Below, piece after piece: positions 38,101 to 41,100 of a stretch of 64,000 nt of DNA; the first letter of the stretch is position 1; the number at the start of each line of letters is the position of its first letter. The stretch covers positions 608,001 to 672,000 of the forward strand of contig CAVVPN010000012.1 of assembly GCA_963750165.1 (NCBI GenBank). Direction: 5' to 3'. This stretch comes from an uncultured Gemmataceae bacterium. GTDB taxonomy: Bacteria; Planctomycetota; Planctomycetia; Gemmatales; Gemmataceae. A program made the position numbers.

Positions 38101-41100
38101 GCGATGCCGAGCTGGTGCAGATTGTTCTGACACTGGGCGTTGGCCGCCGCGGCGCGCACTTTTTGCACGGCGGGCAACAGCAGGCCGATGAGGATGGCGA
38201 TGATGGCGATCACCACCAGTAACTCAATCAGCGTGAACCCTCGCCGACGGAAACACATGGCTGACCTCCCCTGGAAGAAACTCCGACAAGCGGAATGAAA
38301 AACCCTGGAGTCTTACCTGCTAGGTCTTGCGCTTCGGGATGTTGAAATTGAACGTGTTGGGTTCGCCGTCCTTCACCTCGACGAACTGTTTGGAATCGGT
38401 GCTCCATTCGGGCGGCAACGGGTCGAGGTTGCGGGCAGGGCCGGACGGGCCAGGCGGCATCCCCTTGTTCGCGGCCGAGCTTTCGCCGGCGTGAACGCTC
38501 ACCTTGTACTTGCCCGCGGCCAGACCCTTGTTCCTGGAAATCCGGTACTCCCCGTTGACGATCTGGGCGCCGTCGCGGGTGCCCTGGCCGTCCTGTGGTT
38601 CAAAAAAAATGACGCCGTCCTCAATGGGCTGGTCGCCGAAGGTGACCTTGCCGGTAATCTCGTTCCGCACGGGCTCACTTTTGCCGCCGCAACCGCCAAG
38701 GAACCCGAGGCAGCTCAGCCCGAACAACAGGCAGAACGTTTTCGCAGCACCACCGTGCATGACCAAACCCCCTGCGGTAGCGACTGGGTCTGAACTCAGT
38801 TCCTGCGGCCATCCTGGCTTTGGGCGAGATGCCACCAACCCGGTGGAGGAGAGAGCGGTTGTAAAAGTGAGAGAGGTATGGGAGTTTAATTTATGGTTCG
38901 GAGAGGGGTGTGTCAACAAAAAAATCGACCGCGGCAATACAATCGGAGCCCGAGCGCCGGCGAGAAGCAACGCTGCCCCGCGCTGGCGCTCGGGCTCCGA
39001 CCCATCACGAACATGCAAGGCGCTGCCGCATCAGGCTTGCGGCGGGTTCTGCGGAGTGGGCGCCGGCGCCTGGCCGGTGGCCGGCGGTGCCTCGCCCTGC
39101 GGTTGCTGTGCGGCCTCGCCCTGTGGCGGCTGGGCCGGCGCCTCGCCACCTGCCGGTGGGGGCGCGGCGCCCTCGGTGGGCGGAGTTTCCTGCGGCGGCT
39201 CCTCCTGCTGCTGCGTCTCGTCCTCGACCTGCGGCGCCGGGGCCGGCTCGTGCAACCGCACCTTGGTTTCGCCTTCCTTGAGCAGTTCCAGGAAGGCGGT
39301 CTCGCCGCCGTCGCCCAGGCGGCGCTGCGTCCGCTTGATGACGCGCGTGTAGCCGCCCGGCCGGTTGGCGTAGCGCGGCGCGATCTCCTCGAACAACTTC
39401 TTGACGATGTCGCGGTGGTCGGCGTCGTCGCCGGTGCCAGGCTTGACCTCGGCGTGACCGGCGCCGCCCAGGCGGGCAGTCACCAGCCGGCGGGCGTGCA
39501 GCGTGTTGCGCTTGGCCAGCGTGATGAGCCGCTCCACGAACGGCCGGGCCTCCTTGGCCTTGGCGACGGTGGTGATGATCCGCTCATGGCGGAACAGCGC
39601 CATCGCCAGGTTGCGGAACAGGGCCAGGCGGTGCGTCGCGTTGCGGCCGAGTTTGCGGCCGGCTTTCAGGTGTCGCATGGTCAATTCCTTCGATTGCCAA
39701 TTGCAAATTGCAGATTGCAAATTGAAATACAGGAAACGGCGCCGTCTTTCAATTTGCAATCTGCAATTTGCAATTGGCAATTCCGTTAGCGGCGCAGCGA
39801 GGACGGCAATTTCATCCCCAGGTGCAGACCGCGTTCCTGCAGTTTGGCCTTCACTTCCTTCAACGTCGTCTCGCCGAAGTTGCGCACCTCCAGCAGTTCC
39901 TCGTCCGTGCGGATAACCAGGTCGCGGACGGTGGTGATGCCTTCGGACTCCAGGCAGTTGGTCGCCCGCACCGACAGTTCCAGCTCGGCCAGGCTCATGT
40001 TGAGCTTGCGCTCCAGTTCGTGATCGGGCGCCTCCACGGTGGTTGGCGTATCGGCCCGGTCGTCCAGGGCGATCTCGGGGCCGGCCTCGGCGTACTGGAT
40101 GAACGGGTTGAGGTGCTTGCGCATGATCTTGGCGCCCTCGACCAGCGCCAGCTGCGGGCTAATGGTCTCGTTCGTCCAGATTTCCATGACCAGGCGGTCA
40201 TAGTTGGTACGCTGGCCGACGCGCGTCTCCTCGATCTCGTACTTGACGCGCACCACCGGCGAGAAGCTGGAATCGACCGGGATGACACCGATCTCGCGTT
40301 CCTTGCCGGAGTTCTCGTCGGCGGTGCGGTAGCCGCGGCCGTTCTCGACGGTCATCTCCATGACGAAGGGCACGTCGTCGGTGAGCGTGGCGAGGATGTG
40401 CTCGGGGTTGATGATCTGCACCGCCTCGTCGGTGATGATGTTGGCGGCGGTGACGACGCCGCGCTCGTGCCGGTCGATGCGGATGATGCGCGGCGTTTCG
40501 CTGGAGTTCTTGACGACCAGGCTCTTGACGTTGAGGATGATGTCGGTCACATCCTCGACGACGCCGGGGATGGTGGTGATCTCGTGCTGAACGCCCTGAA
40601 TCTTGACGCGCGTGACGGCGCTGCCCTCCAGACTGCTGAGCAGAATACGGCGCAGGCTGTTGCCGACGGTGACGCCGAAGCCGCGCTCGAACGGCTCGGC
40701 GAAGAACTTGCCGTAGCTCGGCGACAGCGTGTCGCGGTCACAGCTCAGACGGTTGGGCAGTTCCAGGCCACGCCATTTGATACGCATGGAAAGCCTCCTT
40801 CAAAATGTCATTAGTCATTAGTCATTAGTCATTAGTCATTAGTTCGCTGGGTTCCCGCTCCAGGGCAGAAACCCAGCGAACTAATGACTAATGACCAATG
40901 ACTAATGACTATCGACCACAGAATTCGATGATGAGCTGCTCCTGCAGCGGCTGGTCCGCCTGGGCCAGGCGCGGGTCCACGTCGCCGCGGGTTGGCAGCC
41001 GGGTCATCTGCGCCTCCAGGGCCTCTGCGTTAAGGATCACCAGGAAGTCGGGGATAGGCTGCGGGTGGTCCTGCTGCCGCTCCTTGACCAGCTTCTGCGA

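Follow-up and report, generated by a model that had tools for sequence, protein, structure and literature searches.

Hairpins with arms of 7-base repeats between the operon genes of a Gemmataceae bacterium, and their possible kinship with intervening sequences

What is the repeat that fills the gap between rpsD and rpoA in an uncultured Gemmataceae bacterium, and how does it come to lie between the stop codon of one gene and the ribosome-binding site of the next? In bacterial genomes, tandem heptamer repeats have stood unexplained since the cyanobacterial reports of 1990, later examples being known from Xanthomonas and Beggiatoaceae. We analyzed a 64,000-nt stretch (contig CAVVPN010000012.1, positions 608,001 to 672,000; hereafter the window, along which coordinates are counted unless a contig is named), the genome to which it belongs and a set of related genomes.

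The gap holds a TAGTCAT-type heptad hairpin of 115 bases, located at about 40803-40918 (minus strand; the hairpin proper at 40806..40916) from its sequence, tandem-repeat detection and RNA folding. Read on the plus strand, it consists of (GTCATTA)x5.3 at 40807-40843, a 36-nt inner palindrome and (ACTAATG)x4.6 at 40880-40911; in the mRNA (minus) strand this becomes a 5' arm of (TAGTCAT)n, the inner palindrome and a 3' arm of (CTAATGA)n. A CCAATGA variant of the 3'-arm unit is present in the window, and the interior of the hairpin, about 36 nt long, encloses no open reading frame. The mRNA strand is predicted to fold into a single stem of about 49 bp (-88.1 kcal/mol, z = -16.9, equalled by 0 of 200 shuffles). 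The TAG stop of rpsD (40909-40911, minus strand) is the first triplet of the 5' arm. At the other end, 4 nt separate the last paired base of the 3' arm from the Shine-Dalgarno sequence of rpoA (GAAGGAGG, 40794..40801, minus strand, read from the sequence), which itself lies 6 nt before the ATG. A scan of 39000-43000 against Rfam returned nothing at the gathering threshold and only sub-threshold matches to microRNA-precursor hairpins. The window hairpin is real, and it is one gene-less member of a family of hairpins with 7-base-repeat arms that follow a stop codon and precede the ribosome-binding site of the next gene.

The surrounding genes are all encoded on the minus strand and were assigned by their Pfam domains: rpsM (S13, 42226..42612, Ribosomal_S13), rpsK (S11, 41703..42083, Ribosomal_S11), rpsD (ribosomal protein S4, 40909..41523, Ribosomal_S4 and S4, ending on TAG), rpoA (RNA polymerase alpha, 39786..40787, RNA_pol_A_bac, RNA_pol_L and RNA_pol_A_CTD) and rplQ (L17, 39031..39678, Ribosomal_L17). 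A second heptad hairpin (39693..39782, minus strand; unit ATTGCAR, core AAAGAC..GTCTTT; -60.1 kcal/mol, z -9.6) occupies the gap from the rpoA stop (TAA) to the rplQ Shine-Dalgarno sequence and has about 30 related loci in the genome. A third (42106..42214, minus strand; unit GTCAGAR, inner core CTGCCGCTTGCGGC; -59.2 kcal/mol, z -4.0) comes after the TAA stop of rpsM and before the Shine-Dalgarno sequence of rpsK. Three different unit types hence occupy three of the four gaps of the rpsM-rpsK-rpsD-rpoA-rplQ operon and, since folding of the rpsK-rpsD gap (41524..41702, minus strand) revealed a non-heptad REPIN-like doublet (GTGGGGCAGACATTCCTGTCTGCC and its partner), all four gaps contain a hairpin repeat. 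The doublet repeat recurs in the S10/spc cluster. Away from the operon, a fourth heptad hairpin (24539..24578, minus strand; unit GTCCGTG; 17-bp stem, z -3.7) is flush with the TGA stop of a 60-aa open reading frame, upstream of an ECF sigma factor gene.

Genome-wide, a scan allowing up to 3 mismatches in 21 nt again yielded the 61 left and 64 right TAGTCAT arrays of the preliminary description, with its 54 left-to-right pairs and 17 single arms; no pair occurs in reverse order, and full hairpins are present at 54/71 loci. The 16-mer GTCATTAGTCATTAGT was likewise recovered in 185 genomic copies. The anatomy described earlier (heptad arms, inner palindrome, a hairpin identical when read from either strand) was confirmed, as was the spread over many unrelated loci without a transposase or target duplication having been found. 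Looking for MITE features at 41 TAGTCAT elements, we found no consistent flanking duplication and no defined terminus, the periodicity blurring the ends. Stop codon usage was counted on crude gene calls of our own (6904 genes; TGA 4477, TAA 1370, TAG 1057). A TAGTCAT-type hairpin lies within 40 nt of 50 gene ends, of which 33 carry TAG, 10 TAA and 7 TGA; this reproduces the reported TAG excess (Fisher, TAG vs genome, p = 6e-16). The reported placement from stop codon to next start is also supported, and stop-side distances were at most 3 nt in 36/54 and at most 25 nt in 49/54 cases. Two further statements were not reproduced: the elements had been said never to fall inside a gene call, and 7/116 elements of all families do so in our crude calls; for the folding energy, given as -0.55 kcal/mol per nt, we obtained a median of -0.37 using DNA parameters.

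The genome contains 433 period-7 arrays and 116 inverted-pair heptad elements; the latter fall into more than 10 unit types (more than 20 canonical units), and the TAGTCAT type has the most members. The polarity of the arrays is constant within every family (AGTCATT pairs 41/41, others 15/15, 11/11 and so on). Of the 109 elements with two flanking genes, 89 lie between co-directional, 12 between convergent and 8 between divergent genes, against a co-directional baseline of 64% by count (p = 1e-4) or 57% by length (p = 6e-8). Subtracting the hairpin from the gap leaves a median of 26 nt, compared with 118 nt across all 4437 co-directional gaps. The upstream stop codon is found in or against the 5' (G-richer) arm, and the next Shine-Dalgarno sequence comes immediately after the end of the 3' arm; all types occupy tight junctions of co-directional genes, where they are flush with the stop codon and stop about 27 nt short of the following start, with stop-side medians of -3 to 4 nt in the larger families and 10 nt for GTCCGTG (4 stop-side distances). 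The genome's own non-periodic long hairpins (n = 1316) served as an internal control. They are distributed 731/360/155 among co-directional, convergent and divergent gaps, with a stop distance of 17, a start distance of 98 and a residual gap of 148, whereas the corresponding values for 103 periodic-armed hairpins are 75/17/5 and 2, 27 and 29. The placement from stop to next start is thus not displayed by the 1316 control hairpins. The arm period among the 103 is 7 in 88, 8 in 8, 9 in 6 and 12 in 1, and arm G+C is 0.40 as opposed to 0.65 in the other hairpins (genome, 66%).

The two arms change together: a Watson-Crick change in the right arm matches 123/185 left-arm deviations from the array's own consensus. 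Transition mismatches in the stems, read on the mRNA strand, comprise 79 G-U and 102 A-C (p = 0.10), without preference for G-U, and nothing in the present data points to selection for the RNA fold. At 54 unrelated loci the TAGTCAT unit is accompanied by a related inner motif (TTAYCWGGGT-like). These hairpins do not show the features of intrinsic terminators, a following U-tract and a position at the end of a transcription unit: T-rich tails occur at 7/103 gene ends with periodic hairpins, and the window element lies inside the alpha operon with a Shine-Dalgarno sequence directly after it.

In other genera the same operon gaps hold heptad hairpins with other units. Within the alpha operon such different-unit hairpins were found in at least 7 genera, and the rpsD-rpoA and rpsM-rpsK gaps contain some hairpin in nearly every relative. 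In relatives G013 and G006 the 3' arms are built of one of these units, AAACTGA, and heptad units of the present genome recur in other genera and other phyla. Patchy occurrence, previously taken as a sign of mobility, therefore concerns the unit only, as relatives without TAGTCAT have other-unit heptad hairpins in the same operon gaps. The empty sites claimed at rpsD were not reproduced as such: G007 and G006 do share the final residue of S4 and its TAG stop, but the spacers there are unrelated sequence, and that gap carries other hairpins in other relatives. No clean empty site was found in this comparison of S4 gaps.

A four-helix-bundle gene is carried by only 2 of about 118 heptad hairpins. 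Both PF05635 (S23p/Avd-like) genes of the genome sit in loops of heptad hairpins, one with TAGTCAT arms (C11:1894926-1895440) and one with GTACGAA arms (C3:24150-24670), each as a PF05635/TIGR02436 open reading frame between arms with 25/31 and 23/29 matched bases, respectively. At the former, the TAG of the upstream gene is the first triplet of the arm, a Shine-Dalgarno sequence and ATG follow the 3' arm, and the four-helix-bundle open reading frame terminates on a TAA within that arm. Inverted period-7 arms (at least 22 matched bases) flank 9/11 assessable PF05635 loci of 11 related genomes vs 0/20 shifted controls, giving 11/13 with the two loci of this genome included, and the most similar PF05635 protein pairs bear near-identical heptad units. 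The only gene found with TAGTCAT arms is this four-helix-bundle gene, not a known transposase. TAGTCAT is the only miniature family with a resident gene-bearing copy; it is also the most numerous, with the most uniform arrays. No cognate gene was found in this genome for the GTCAGAR, ATTGCAR and GATGARG families, and relatives G002 and G014 (fragmented assemblies of 93% and 80% completeness) have heptad hairpins and no PF05635 match. A profile built from 12 four-helix-bundle sequences of this order matched within 300 nt of 0/126 TCATTAG-array loci of other phyla, among the matches listed. The nearest solved structure to the protein of this genome is XCC0516 of X. campestris (2gsc). The earlier interpretation, partly supported by these results, was too narrow, having missed the other unit families and the link to the four-helix-bundle gene.

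On balance, the window element is probably a gene-less (miniature) copy of a heptamer-armed, intervening-sequence-like hairpin cassette. In the full-length cassette, a small PF05635/TIGR02436 four-helix-bundle gene ("23S rRNA intervening-sequence protein", Avd-like) lies between two inverted arrays built of a single 7-nt unit, an architecture that matches that of 23S rRNA intervening sequences bearing an open reading frame, but placed in operon mRNAs. The proposed descent of the miniatures from the cassette rests on shared arms, polarity and placement, since the interiors of the two cassettes have no nucleotide homology to those of the 116 miniatures (blastn-short, E <= 0.05). In DNA, slippage would add or remove units in 7-nt steps, and template switching within the palindrome would keep the arms complementary. 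In RNA, the stem of about 50 bp would loop the insert out of the message; stop codon and next ribosome-binding site would then stay adjacent, so that only insertions in such positions would survive. If intervening sequences are a guide, RNase III, for which the genome has a gene, probably cleaves the stem. The four-helix-bundle protein is a candidate trans factor that may recognise the heptads, and we know of no catalytic activity in its family. PF05635 has been described as homologous to Avd, an accessory factor of diversity-generating retroelements (PMC10053308).

The main competing view is that the hairpin is an intercistronic RNA device selected by the host and retained for its service to the operon message, which we consider unlikely. 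It might act in translational coupling, where a ribosome that terminates at the foot of the stem would melt its last 10-12 bp and free the region by the next Shine-Dalgarno sequence in a shunt-like manner, or in the protection or processing of polycistronic mRNA segments. It would account for the occupation of the tightest junctions (residual gap 29 nt vs 148 nt in the control) and for the hairpins of differing unit that relatives keep in the alpha-operon gaps. The AT-rich arms, easier to melt in a genome of such high G+C, also count for it, as do the mini-hairpin CCTCCGAAGGAG (anti-SD/SD), which adjoins the TAGTCAT 3' arm in 5/7 genomic copies, and the many core operons among the flanking genes of the first 55 of 109 elements (Ffh-S16, EF-Tu-SecE, GatC-GatA, Tig-ClpP). 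Against it speak the missing preference for G-U over A-C on the sense strand, the free turnover of units and cores, the presence of the asymmetric GTCAGAR inner core in both orientations relative to transcription, and the selfish-looking gene borne by the same architecture. Somewhat less probable still are home-grown simple-sequence repeats, in which no mobile element takes part: polymerase slippage would grow arrays to either side of small junction hairpins already in place, and quasi-palindrome correction would mirror them. The differing units in orthologous gaps are expected on this view, as is the behaviour of the GTCAGAR core CTGCCGCTTGCGGC, which has 177 copies (161 intergenic) with heptad arrays within 45 nt at only 7, and which occurs naked in the spc operon and in the rpsM-rpsK gap of G016. 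The unit adjoining the AAAGAC core moreover resembles the repeated unit (ATTGAAA vs ATTGCAA), and among long simple-sequence repeats those of heptamers are the most frequent in many bacteria, slippage having been proposed as the cause (Mrazek 2007, as cited in PMC4679880 and PMC4692102). Local growth does not sit well with one unit and a related inner motif at 54 unrelated loci, with the same units in other genera and phyla or with the tight tie to one gene family (11/13 vs 0/20), and slippage alone does not explain why the tightest junctions are preferred to long spacers.

The earlier emphasis was on stop codons as the organising principle; the function of the element would then be to present stops in each frame where it is entered, and stops together with ATG where it is left. 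We now hold this to be highly improbable as an explanation, even though TAG, 15% of stops genome-wide, closes 33/50 adjacent genes, an array-starting TAG directly follows unrelated coding sequence in 19 cases and the open reading frame of the TAGTCAT cassette stops on the TAA of its 3' arm. Any 7-nt unit with a stop triplet offers stops in three frames because 7 and 3 are coprime, and only the TAGTCAT unit provides stops in every frame: neither arm of ATTGCAR and GTCCGTG, nor the 5' arm of GTCAGAR, contains a stop triplet, yet these hairpins are just as precisely placed at stops (median 1-4 nt past the stop in the larger of these families, 10 nt for the 4 distances of GTCCGTG). TAA is enriched at the other families too (21/49, p = 2e-4), which points to AT-rich or highly expressed contexts rather than design. 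Mobilisation as REP/REPIN elements by a RAYT (IS200-like Y1 transposase) has the least to recommend it and is close to negligible. The genome does have one intact RAYT-like gene (C11:133772-134683, Y1_Tnp 50.9 bits) and many REPIN-like doublets; however, no heptad array lies within 6 kb of any of its 4 Y1_Tnp matches, the arms lack a GTAG/CGTC-tagged 20-40 nt REP, and the RAYT-like gene is present in 12/31 relatives in a pattern unrelated to heptad hairpins (not found in G013, a fragment only in G007). We also entertain, as a long shot, an extension of the preferred cassette reading in which the cassette, as an "intervening sequence of messenger RNAs", would propagate through RNA. RNase III would cut the long stem out of operon transcripts, the Avd-like four-helix-bundle protein would bind the heptad arms, and a host reverse transcriptase (at least 5 RVT_1 genes are present) would copy the hairpin RNA into DNA at other stop-to-SD junctions, reiterative, telomerase-like copying of the 7-nt template making the heptad arrays. 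If true, one mechanism would cover the heptamer repeats of bacteria as well as the scattered four-helix-bundle genes and the intervening sequences of rRNA.

Taken together, the internal control sets heptad-armed hairpins apart from ordinary palindromic repeats by their placement at the tightest junctions from stop codon to ribosome-binding site, among them three of the four in an essential operon of ribosomal proteins, and gap occupancy, not the unit sequence, is common to genera. The full-length form, with its gene of the rRNA-intervening-sequence/Avd family, provides a candidate protein partner and connects heptamer repeats to intervening sequences; a literature search returned no paper linking the two through the four-helix-bundle gene. 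Any effect of the hairpins on the coupling or processing of operon messages would make them relevant to annotation and to core-gene expression in these bacteria.

The design itself, announced as not described before, is not new, the repeat type being already known from Xanthomonas and cyanobacteria. Inverted heptamer pairs are reported from Xanthomonas at 70-75 convergent pairs per genome (Rehm et al. 2015, PMC4692102), and the resemblance is close. The GGGAATC repeats of X. campestris and X. axonopodis are tandem 7-nt units, mostly in about 4 copies, whose convergent inverted pairs can form stem-loops; they lie between aligned and rarely between divergent ORFs, the G-richer array on the sense strand being within 50 bp of, or overlapping, the stop and its complement just upstream of the next ORF, and as here their length and sequence differ between close species (PMC4692102). 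The window element likewise has tandem units in at least three copies, a convergent pair and stop-side placement, and so belongs among heptamer-repeat inverted arrays. Xanthomonas has one dominant G-rich unit, read as a G-quadruplex former (PMC4692102), where we find more than 10 types, mostly AT-rich and free of G-tracts, with conserved inner cores. The TAGTCAT, ATTGCAR and GTCAGAR units have no GGG run; G-quadruplex G-tracts define the Xanthomonas sub-type and not the heptamer-repeat class. Unlike the Xanthomonas study (PMC4692102), we demonstrate occupancy of the tightest junctions against an internal hairpin control, and the main text of that study, in which neither "S23" nor "xcc0516" occurs, does not draw the link to the four-helix bundle.

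The unit is cyanobacterial as well: in a scan of public genomes, (AGTCATT)3 was found at 126 loci at least, nearly all in filamentous cyanobacteria. Heptamer repeats (STRR) were reportedly noticed there by Mazel et al. in 1990. GAC(C/T)AAT repeats upstream of recO in Nostoc PCC 7120 (bioRxiv 10.1101/2022.06.06.494920) correspond to ours, GACTAAT being a rotation of the 3'-arm unit CTAATGA and GACCAAT of its variant CCAATGA. The cyanobacterial arrays are intergenic and near start codons, as here, but mostly single, with a left-to-right pair at 4 of the first 80 loci listed (strict test), whereas 54/71 loci are full hairpins in our planctomycete genome of 66% G+C. A further heptamer, TAACTGA, forms direct repeats in marine Beggiatoaceae, cyanobacteria and Bacteroidetes (MacGregor 2015, PMC4679880). 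One base away from the AAACTGA 3' arms of G013 and G006, these repeats are also intergenic and contain stop triplets. They too lie within ribosomal-protein operons, including upstream of S4, and are described as patchy across phyla with no evident mobility mechanism (PMC4679880). They differ in being direct (one inverted set only) and a few nt upstream of starts (PMC4679880), in contrast to the long stop-anchored hairpins here. Like REP/REPIN sequences (PMC3116915), the elements are short palindromes repeated many times between genes, chiefly where a spacer is transcribed and close to the end of a gene; they depart from them in the tandem-repeat arms, in having no RAYT association and in a placement different from that of the genome's own REP-like hairpins.

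A further comparison is with 23S rRNA intervening sequences. RNase III excises that of Coxiella burnetii, whose terminal stem of 28 bp encloses an S23p ORF in its loop (PMC4990558). Our elements lie between protein-coding cistrons (rpsD and rpoA for the window copy) and not in rRNA helix 25 or 45, their arms are tandem heptads, and most copies have lost, or never had, the ORF. The window element, with the long stem and no loop ORF, is a gene-less derivative and not itself a cassette. What is held in common with the intervening sequences (PMC4990558) comprises terminal inverted repeats that pair perfectly over about 28 bp or more, a loop with a PF05635 ORF in the full-length form, a G+C content below that of the host, a sporadic distribution and insertion in a highly transcribed essential transcript.

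On the forward strand, the element at 40803-40918 consists of 5.3 copies of GTCATTA (40807-40843), a 36-nt inner palindrome and 4.6 copies of ACTAATG (40880-40911). The surrounding genes were identified with Pfam and all lie on the minus strand: S13 (42226-42612), S11 (41703-42083), S4 (40909-41523), RpoA (39786-40787) and L17 (39031-39678). Read as mRNA, the S4 gene rpsD ends ...GAA TTC TGT GGT CGA TAG, and the 5' arm opens with this TAG stop. After the 3' arm come ATTTT, GAAGGAGG, six bases and then the rpoA ATG. The RNA is predicted to fold into a single stem of ~49 bp (-88.1 kcal/mol, z = -16.9), equalled by none of 200 shuffles. 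A search of Rfam with 39000-43000 gave no match above threshold, and all microRNA-like hairpin matches were sub-threshold.

Two more gaps of this operon are filled by heptad hairpins built from other units: an ATTGCAR hairpin at 39693-39782, which follows the rpoA stop and precedes the rplQ Shine-Dalgarno sequence, and a GTCAGAR hairpin at 42106-42214, which follows the rpsM stop and precedes the Shine-Dalgarno sequence of rpsK. The fourth gap of the operon, rpsK-rpsD (41524-41702), holds a non-heptad REPIN-like doublet of GTGGGGCAGAC...GTCTGCCCCAC type, which also occupies gaps within and beside the S10/spc ribosomal-protein cluster (contig C3 of the same genome, 809823-809898 and 819195-819278). 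A fourth heptad hairpin in the window, of GTCCGTG type, lies at 24539-24578. The window also contains a 126-nt tandem repeat (62807-63992, 9.4 copies) and a 72/144-nt repeat (54277-54642), both within long open reading frames and with consensus units resembling WD40 and leucine-rich repeats; the 126-nt consensus given by the repeat finder includes a TAG triplet. Two perfect 27-nt direct duplications, unlike each other in sequence, are found at 43628-43681 and 54831-54887.

The preliminary description had presented the TAGTCAT hairpins as a new repeat element with stop codons in every frame. Scanning the source genome (G000) with up to 3 mismatches per 21 nt, we recovered its counts of 61 left and 64 right arrays, 54 left-to-right pairs and 17 single arms; pairs in reverse order were absent, and the count of 185 for the 16-mer GTCATTAGTCATTAGT was recovered as well. 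The reported excess of TAG stops was also reproduced with our own crude gene caller (6904 genes; TGA 4477, TAA 1370, TAG 1057): of 50 gene ends that lie no more than 40 nt from a TAGTCAT-type hairpin, 33 are TAG, 10 TAA and 7 TGA (Fisher p = 6e-16). The finding is real and well measured; its scope was too narrow, and a wider class exists. Tandem Repeats Finder detected 433 period-7 arrays with at least 2.8 copies, among which 120 inverted heptad pairs merged into 116 elements distributed over AGTCATT (41), AAGTCAG (13), AAATTGC (11), AGATTGC (9), AAGGATG (8), AGAGGTC (6), CCGTGGT (4) and many smaller groups. The window element is one family within this larger class. Arm polarity is constant inside each family, the 5' arm always deriving from one strand (e.g. 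41/41 and 15/15), and across families the G-richer arm is the 5' arm. Stop triplets are absent from the ATTGCAR and GTCCGTG arms and from the GTCAGAR 5' arm, so stops in every frame are a property of one unit and not the design of the element. In a public record of a Pirellulaceae bin, a CTAATGA array precedes degenerate TCATTAG units, opposite to the invariant arm order seen here.

The striking feature of heptad hairpins is their placement at gene junctions. Gene calls are available on both sides of 109 elements: 89 of these occupy co-directional, 12 convergent and 8 divergent gaps, and 7 further elements fall inside a crude gene call. The co-directional baseline is 64% of gaps by number (p = 1e-4) or 57% by length (p = 6e-8). 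In the larger families the median distance to the upstream stop codon is -3 to 4 nt (10 nt in the GTCCGTG family, from four distances), and the next start codon follows about 27 nt after the hairpin. Once the hairpin is subtracted, the residual gap has a median of 26 nt, compared with 118 nt over 4437 co-directional gaps. Such tight junctions are the opposite of the long-spacer bias expected from random insertion combined with purifying selection. A Pfam scan of flanking genes covered the first 55 of the 109 elements; the genome encodes DUF1559, PSCyt1/2, PSD1 and DUF1501, families that are hallmarks of planctomycetes, and it is on these that the organism is placed as a probable planctomycete.

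The remaining hairpins of the genome provide an internal control for this placement. We collected all hairpins with arms of at least 24 nt and at least 85% complementarity (n = 1419). The outer arms are tandem-periodic in 103 of them, compared with 1 from shuffled arms; the period is 7 in 88 cases, 8 in 8, 9 in 6 and 12 in 1. The periodic-armed hairpins are 75 co-directional, 17 convergent and 5 divergent, with a stop distance of 2 nt, a start distance of 27 nt and a residual gap of 29 nt. The 1316 non-periodic hairpins behave like REP or terminator elements (731 co-directional, 360 convergent, 155 divergent; stop distance 17 nt, start distance 98 nt, residual gap 148 nt), and arm G+C is 65% in this group versus 40% in the periodic one. 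About 92% of the 1419 hairpins lie outside gene calls; palindromic repeats of several families are thus unusually abundant between the genes of this genome.

Some of these families are found inside heptad hairpins. The inner core of GTCAGAR hairpins, CTGCCGCTTGCGGC, is a small hairpin CTGCCGC(TT/AA)GCGGC present in 177 copies, 161 of them intergenic, and only 7 of the 177 have heptad arrays nearby; naked cores occur, among other sites, in the spc operon and in the rpsM-rpsK gap of the related genome G016. This small hairpin often forms inverted doublets with a conserved AGCGCTAA flank (e.g. C3:815632-815661 and C3:818199-818234), and solitary copies are also seen in ribosomal-protein operon gaps. 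A second core, AAAGAC...GTCTTT, is common to ATTGCAR, GATGARG and GTCAGTG hairpins and to hairpins with 8- or 9-nt periodic arms (CACGAAAA, GGTGAGGG, CACAGATGA, CACGGAACA; e.g. C3:33260, C3:857447, C1:349782 and C11:1269462). Other palindromic repeats, including a ~90-nt GGTTCGTAGTACCGCC...-type palindrome and a GACCGAAGGTCTCC-type repeat, are nested in loops at C3:1821905-1822156, C4:807337-807528, C1:132491, C10:77747, C3:50775, C3:1429315 and C4:152966, and heptad-hairpin loops appear to be insertion targets for such repeats. Outside the arms, CCTCCGAAGGAG, an anti-SD/SD mini-hairpin, lies directly 3' of a TAGTCAT 3' arm at five of its seven genomic occurrences (C3:1208461, C3:1645735, C3:1304811, C3:2371880 and C11:117753), with a start codon 5-20 nt further on.

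Among 31 genomes, TAGTCAT-type matches were found in G000, G002, G007 and, in small number, G012, and ATTGCAR-type matches in G000, G002, G006, G007 and G013. The gaps of the alpha operon show that the architecture is far wider than any single unit. The rpsD-rpoA gap carries a TTTCAGT hairpin in G013, and the rpoA-rplQ gap carries TRGTCAT in G007, TTCAGTK in G006, GTCATTS in G002 and CTAAGGA (3' arm only) in G012. Similarly, the rpsK-rpsD gap is occupied by GAGTGAC in G012, TTTTCGA in G007, GATGAAT in G016 and GACAAGT in G014, and the rpsM-rpsK gap by TCAGGAA in G007. Most other relatives have a hairpin of some other sort in these gaps. The gaps are therefore occupied in common across genera while the unit differs, and the empty sites proposed earlier for rpsD-rpoA are not clean: the relatives are too diverged and other hairpins stand in the gap.

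Within single copies the two arms vary together. The left arms depart from the consensus unit of their own array at 185 positions, with the Watson-Crick complement present in the right arm at 123 and absent at 62. The order of variant units differs between copies of one family, yet is mirrored within each copy. Either selection on pairing or template switching within palindromes could produce this pattern. Among transition mismatches on the mRNA strand, G-U was not preferred over A-C (79 vs 102, p = 0.10), which gives no indication that the RNA itself is under selection.

Heptad arms are also associated with a gene. The genome encodes two PF05635 four-helix-bundle proteins (TIGR02436 matches at 90.6 and 92.4 bits), and each gene sits in a hairpin loop between inverted heptad arms; our own profile (E <= 0.01) found no further or degenerate members there. 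The TAGTCAT-armed cassette at C11:1894926-1895440 has arms (TTAGTCA)3.7 and (ATGACTA)5 around a 454-nt interior. The first triplet of its arm is the TAG stop of the upstream gene; its open reading frame (137 aa) runs in the direction of the operon, has its own GAGGAGG and stops at a TAA within the 3' arm, after which come AGAAGGA and the ATG of the next gene. The second cassette (C3:24150-24670) has arms (AAGTACG)4.3 and (TTCGTAC)4.3 around a 126-aa open reading frame. When inverted heptad pairs were sought with spacers of 251-2500 nt, these two were the only true cassettes, the other 6 rows being separate geneless hairpins that bracket an ordinary gene. PF05635 matches occur in 19 of 31 relatives' genomes. 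Of 12 loci fetched, 11 were assessable, and at 9 of these the arms are inverted, match over 22 or more bases and fit a period of 7 best, the unit differing at each; controls shifted by 1000 nt at the same loci gave 0/20. In three protein pairs compared, the most similar ones had near-identical units (69% identity, TTTCAGT vs KTTCAGG; 61%, GGTAGTT vs GGCAGTA), and this genome's own two proteins, which are distant from each other, have unrelated arm units. Among solved structures, the nearest to the protein here is X. campestris XCC0516, whose deposited entry has five chains.

A simple story of parent cassette and miniature hairpin is nevertheless argued against by several observations. Cassette interiors share no detectable sequence with the 116 geneless interiors, which led us to reject internal deletion as the origin of the latter; a likeness seen by eye between the hairpin at C11:1753212 and the cassette 3' interior fell short of E <= 0.05. 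Most unit families lack a gene-bearing copy in this genome, and G002 and G014, both fragmented assemblies, have heptad hairpins and no PF05635 match. TCATTAG-array loci of other phyla had a four-helix-bundle match within 300 nt at 0 of the 126 among the matches listed, and no target-site duplication was readable at heptad hairpins, including in a TA test by eye. RAYT was rejected as mobiliser, as the hairpins are not associated with the RAYT-like gene present. The sole intact gene of this kind, a Y1 transposase (C11:133772-134683), has flanks that translate to recurring EKVSGPFF-like strings and is likely to have a REP family of its own that is not related to the heptads. A terminator reading was rejected as well: T-rich tails are scarce (7-8%) in periodic and non-periodic hairpins alike.

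We favor a reading in which the window element would be a gene-less copy of the TAGTCAT-armed cassette. Array length would change through slippage, and arm complementarity would be maintained within the palindrome. The stem may loop the insert out of the operon message and keep the stop and the next Shine-Dalgarno sequence adjacent, which would explain why junction placements persist. By analogy with intervening sequences, the stem is probably cut by RNase III, which this genome encodes. At least five reverse transcriptase genes leave room for a bolder candidate reading based on RNA. The main rival holds that the hairpins are retained by the host as a coupling or processing device.

The intervening sequence of Coxiella 23S rRNA is 428 nt long; its terminal stem measures 28 bp, its loop holds an S23p open reading frame, and it is cut out by RNase III (PMC4990558). 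PF05635 shares homology with Avd, a factor of diversity-generating retroelements (PMC10053308). In the literature, supplements aside, we found no paper tying heptamer repeats to the PF05635 family. In a scan of public genomes, (AGTCATT)3 accounted for 126/126 loci among the matches listed, nearly all from Nostoc, Microcoleus, Tychonema, Anabaena and Calothrix, with one Pirellulaceae and two Bacteroidota bins; the unit of the window element is itself a cyanobacterial one. Elhai and colleagues reportedly described small mobile repeats in cyanobacterial heptamer arrays in 2008. Eight repeats of GAC(C/T)AAT stand upstream of Nostoc recO (bioRxiv 10.1101/2022.06.06.494920), and this heptamer is the 3'-arm unit of the window element in another rotation. 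TAACTGA direct repeats are reported near start codons, including those of ribosomal-protein operons, with a patchy distribution across phyla (MacGregor 2015, PMC4679880). In Xanthomonas, GGGAATC heptamers form 70-75 convergent inverted pairs per genome, located between aligned and rarely between divergent open reading frames (Rehm et al. 2015, PMC4692102); in the features described there, geometry and polarity are the same as in our heptad hairpins. The design had been taken as not described before, and elements of this kind have already been published for Xanthomonas and cyanobacteria. Our tests add the presence of many unit families in one probable planctomycete, their contrast with ordinary hairpins, the turnover of units at shared gaps and a confirmation of the link to a gene.
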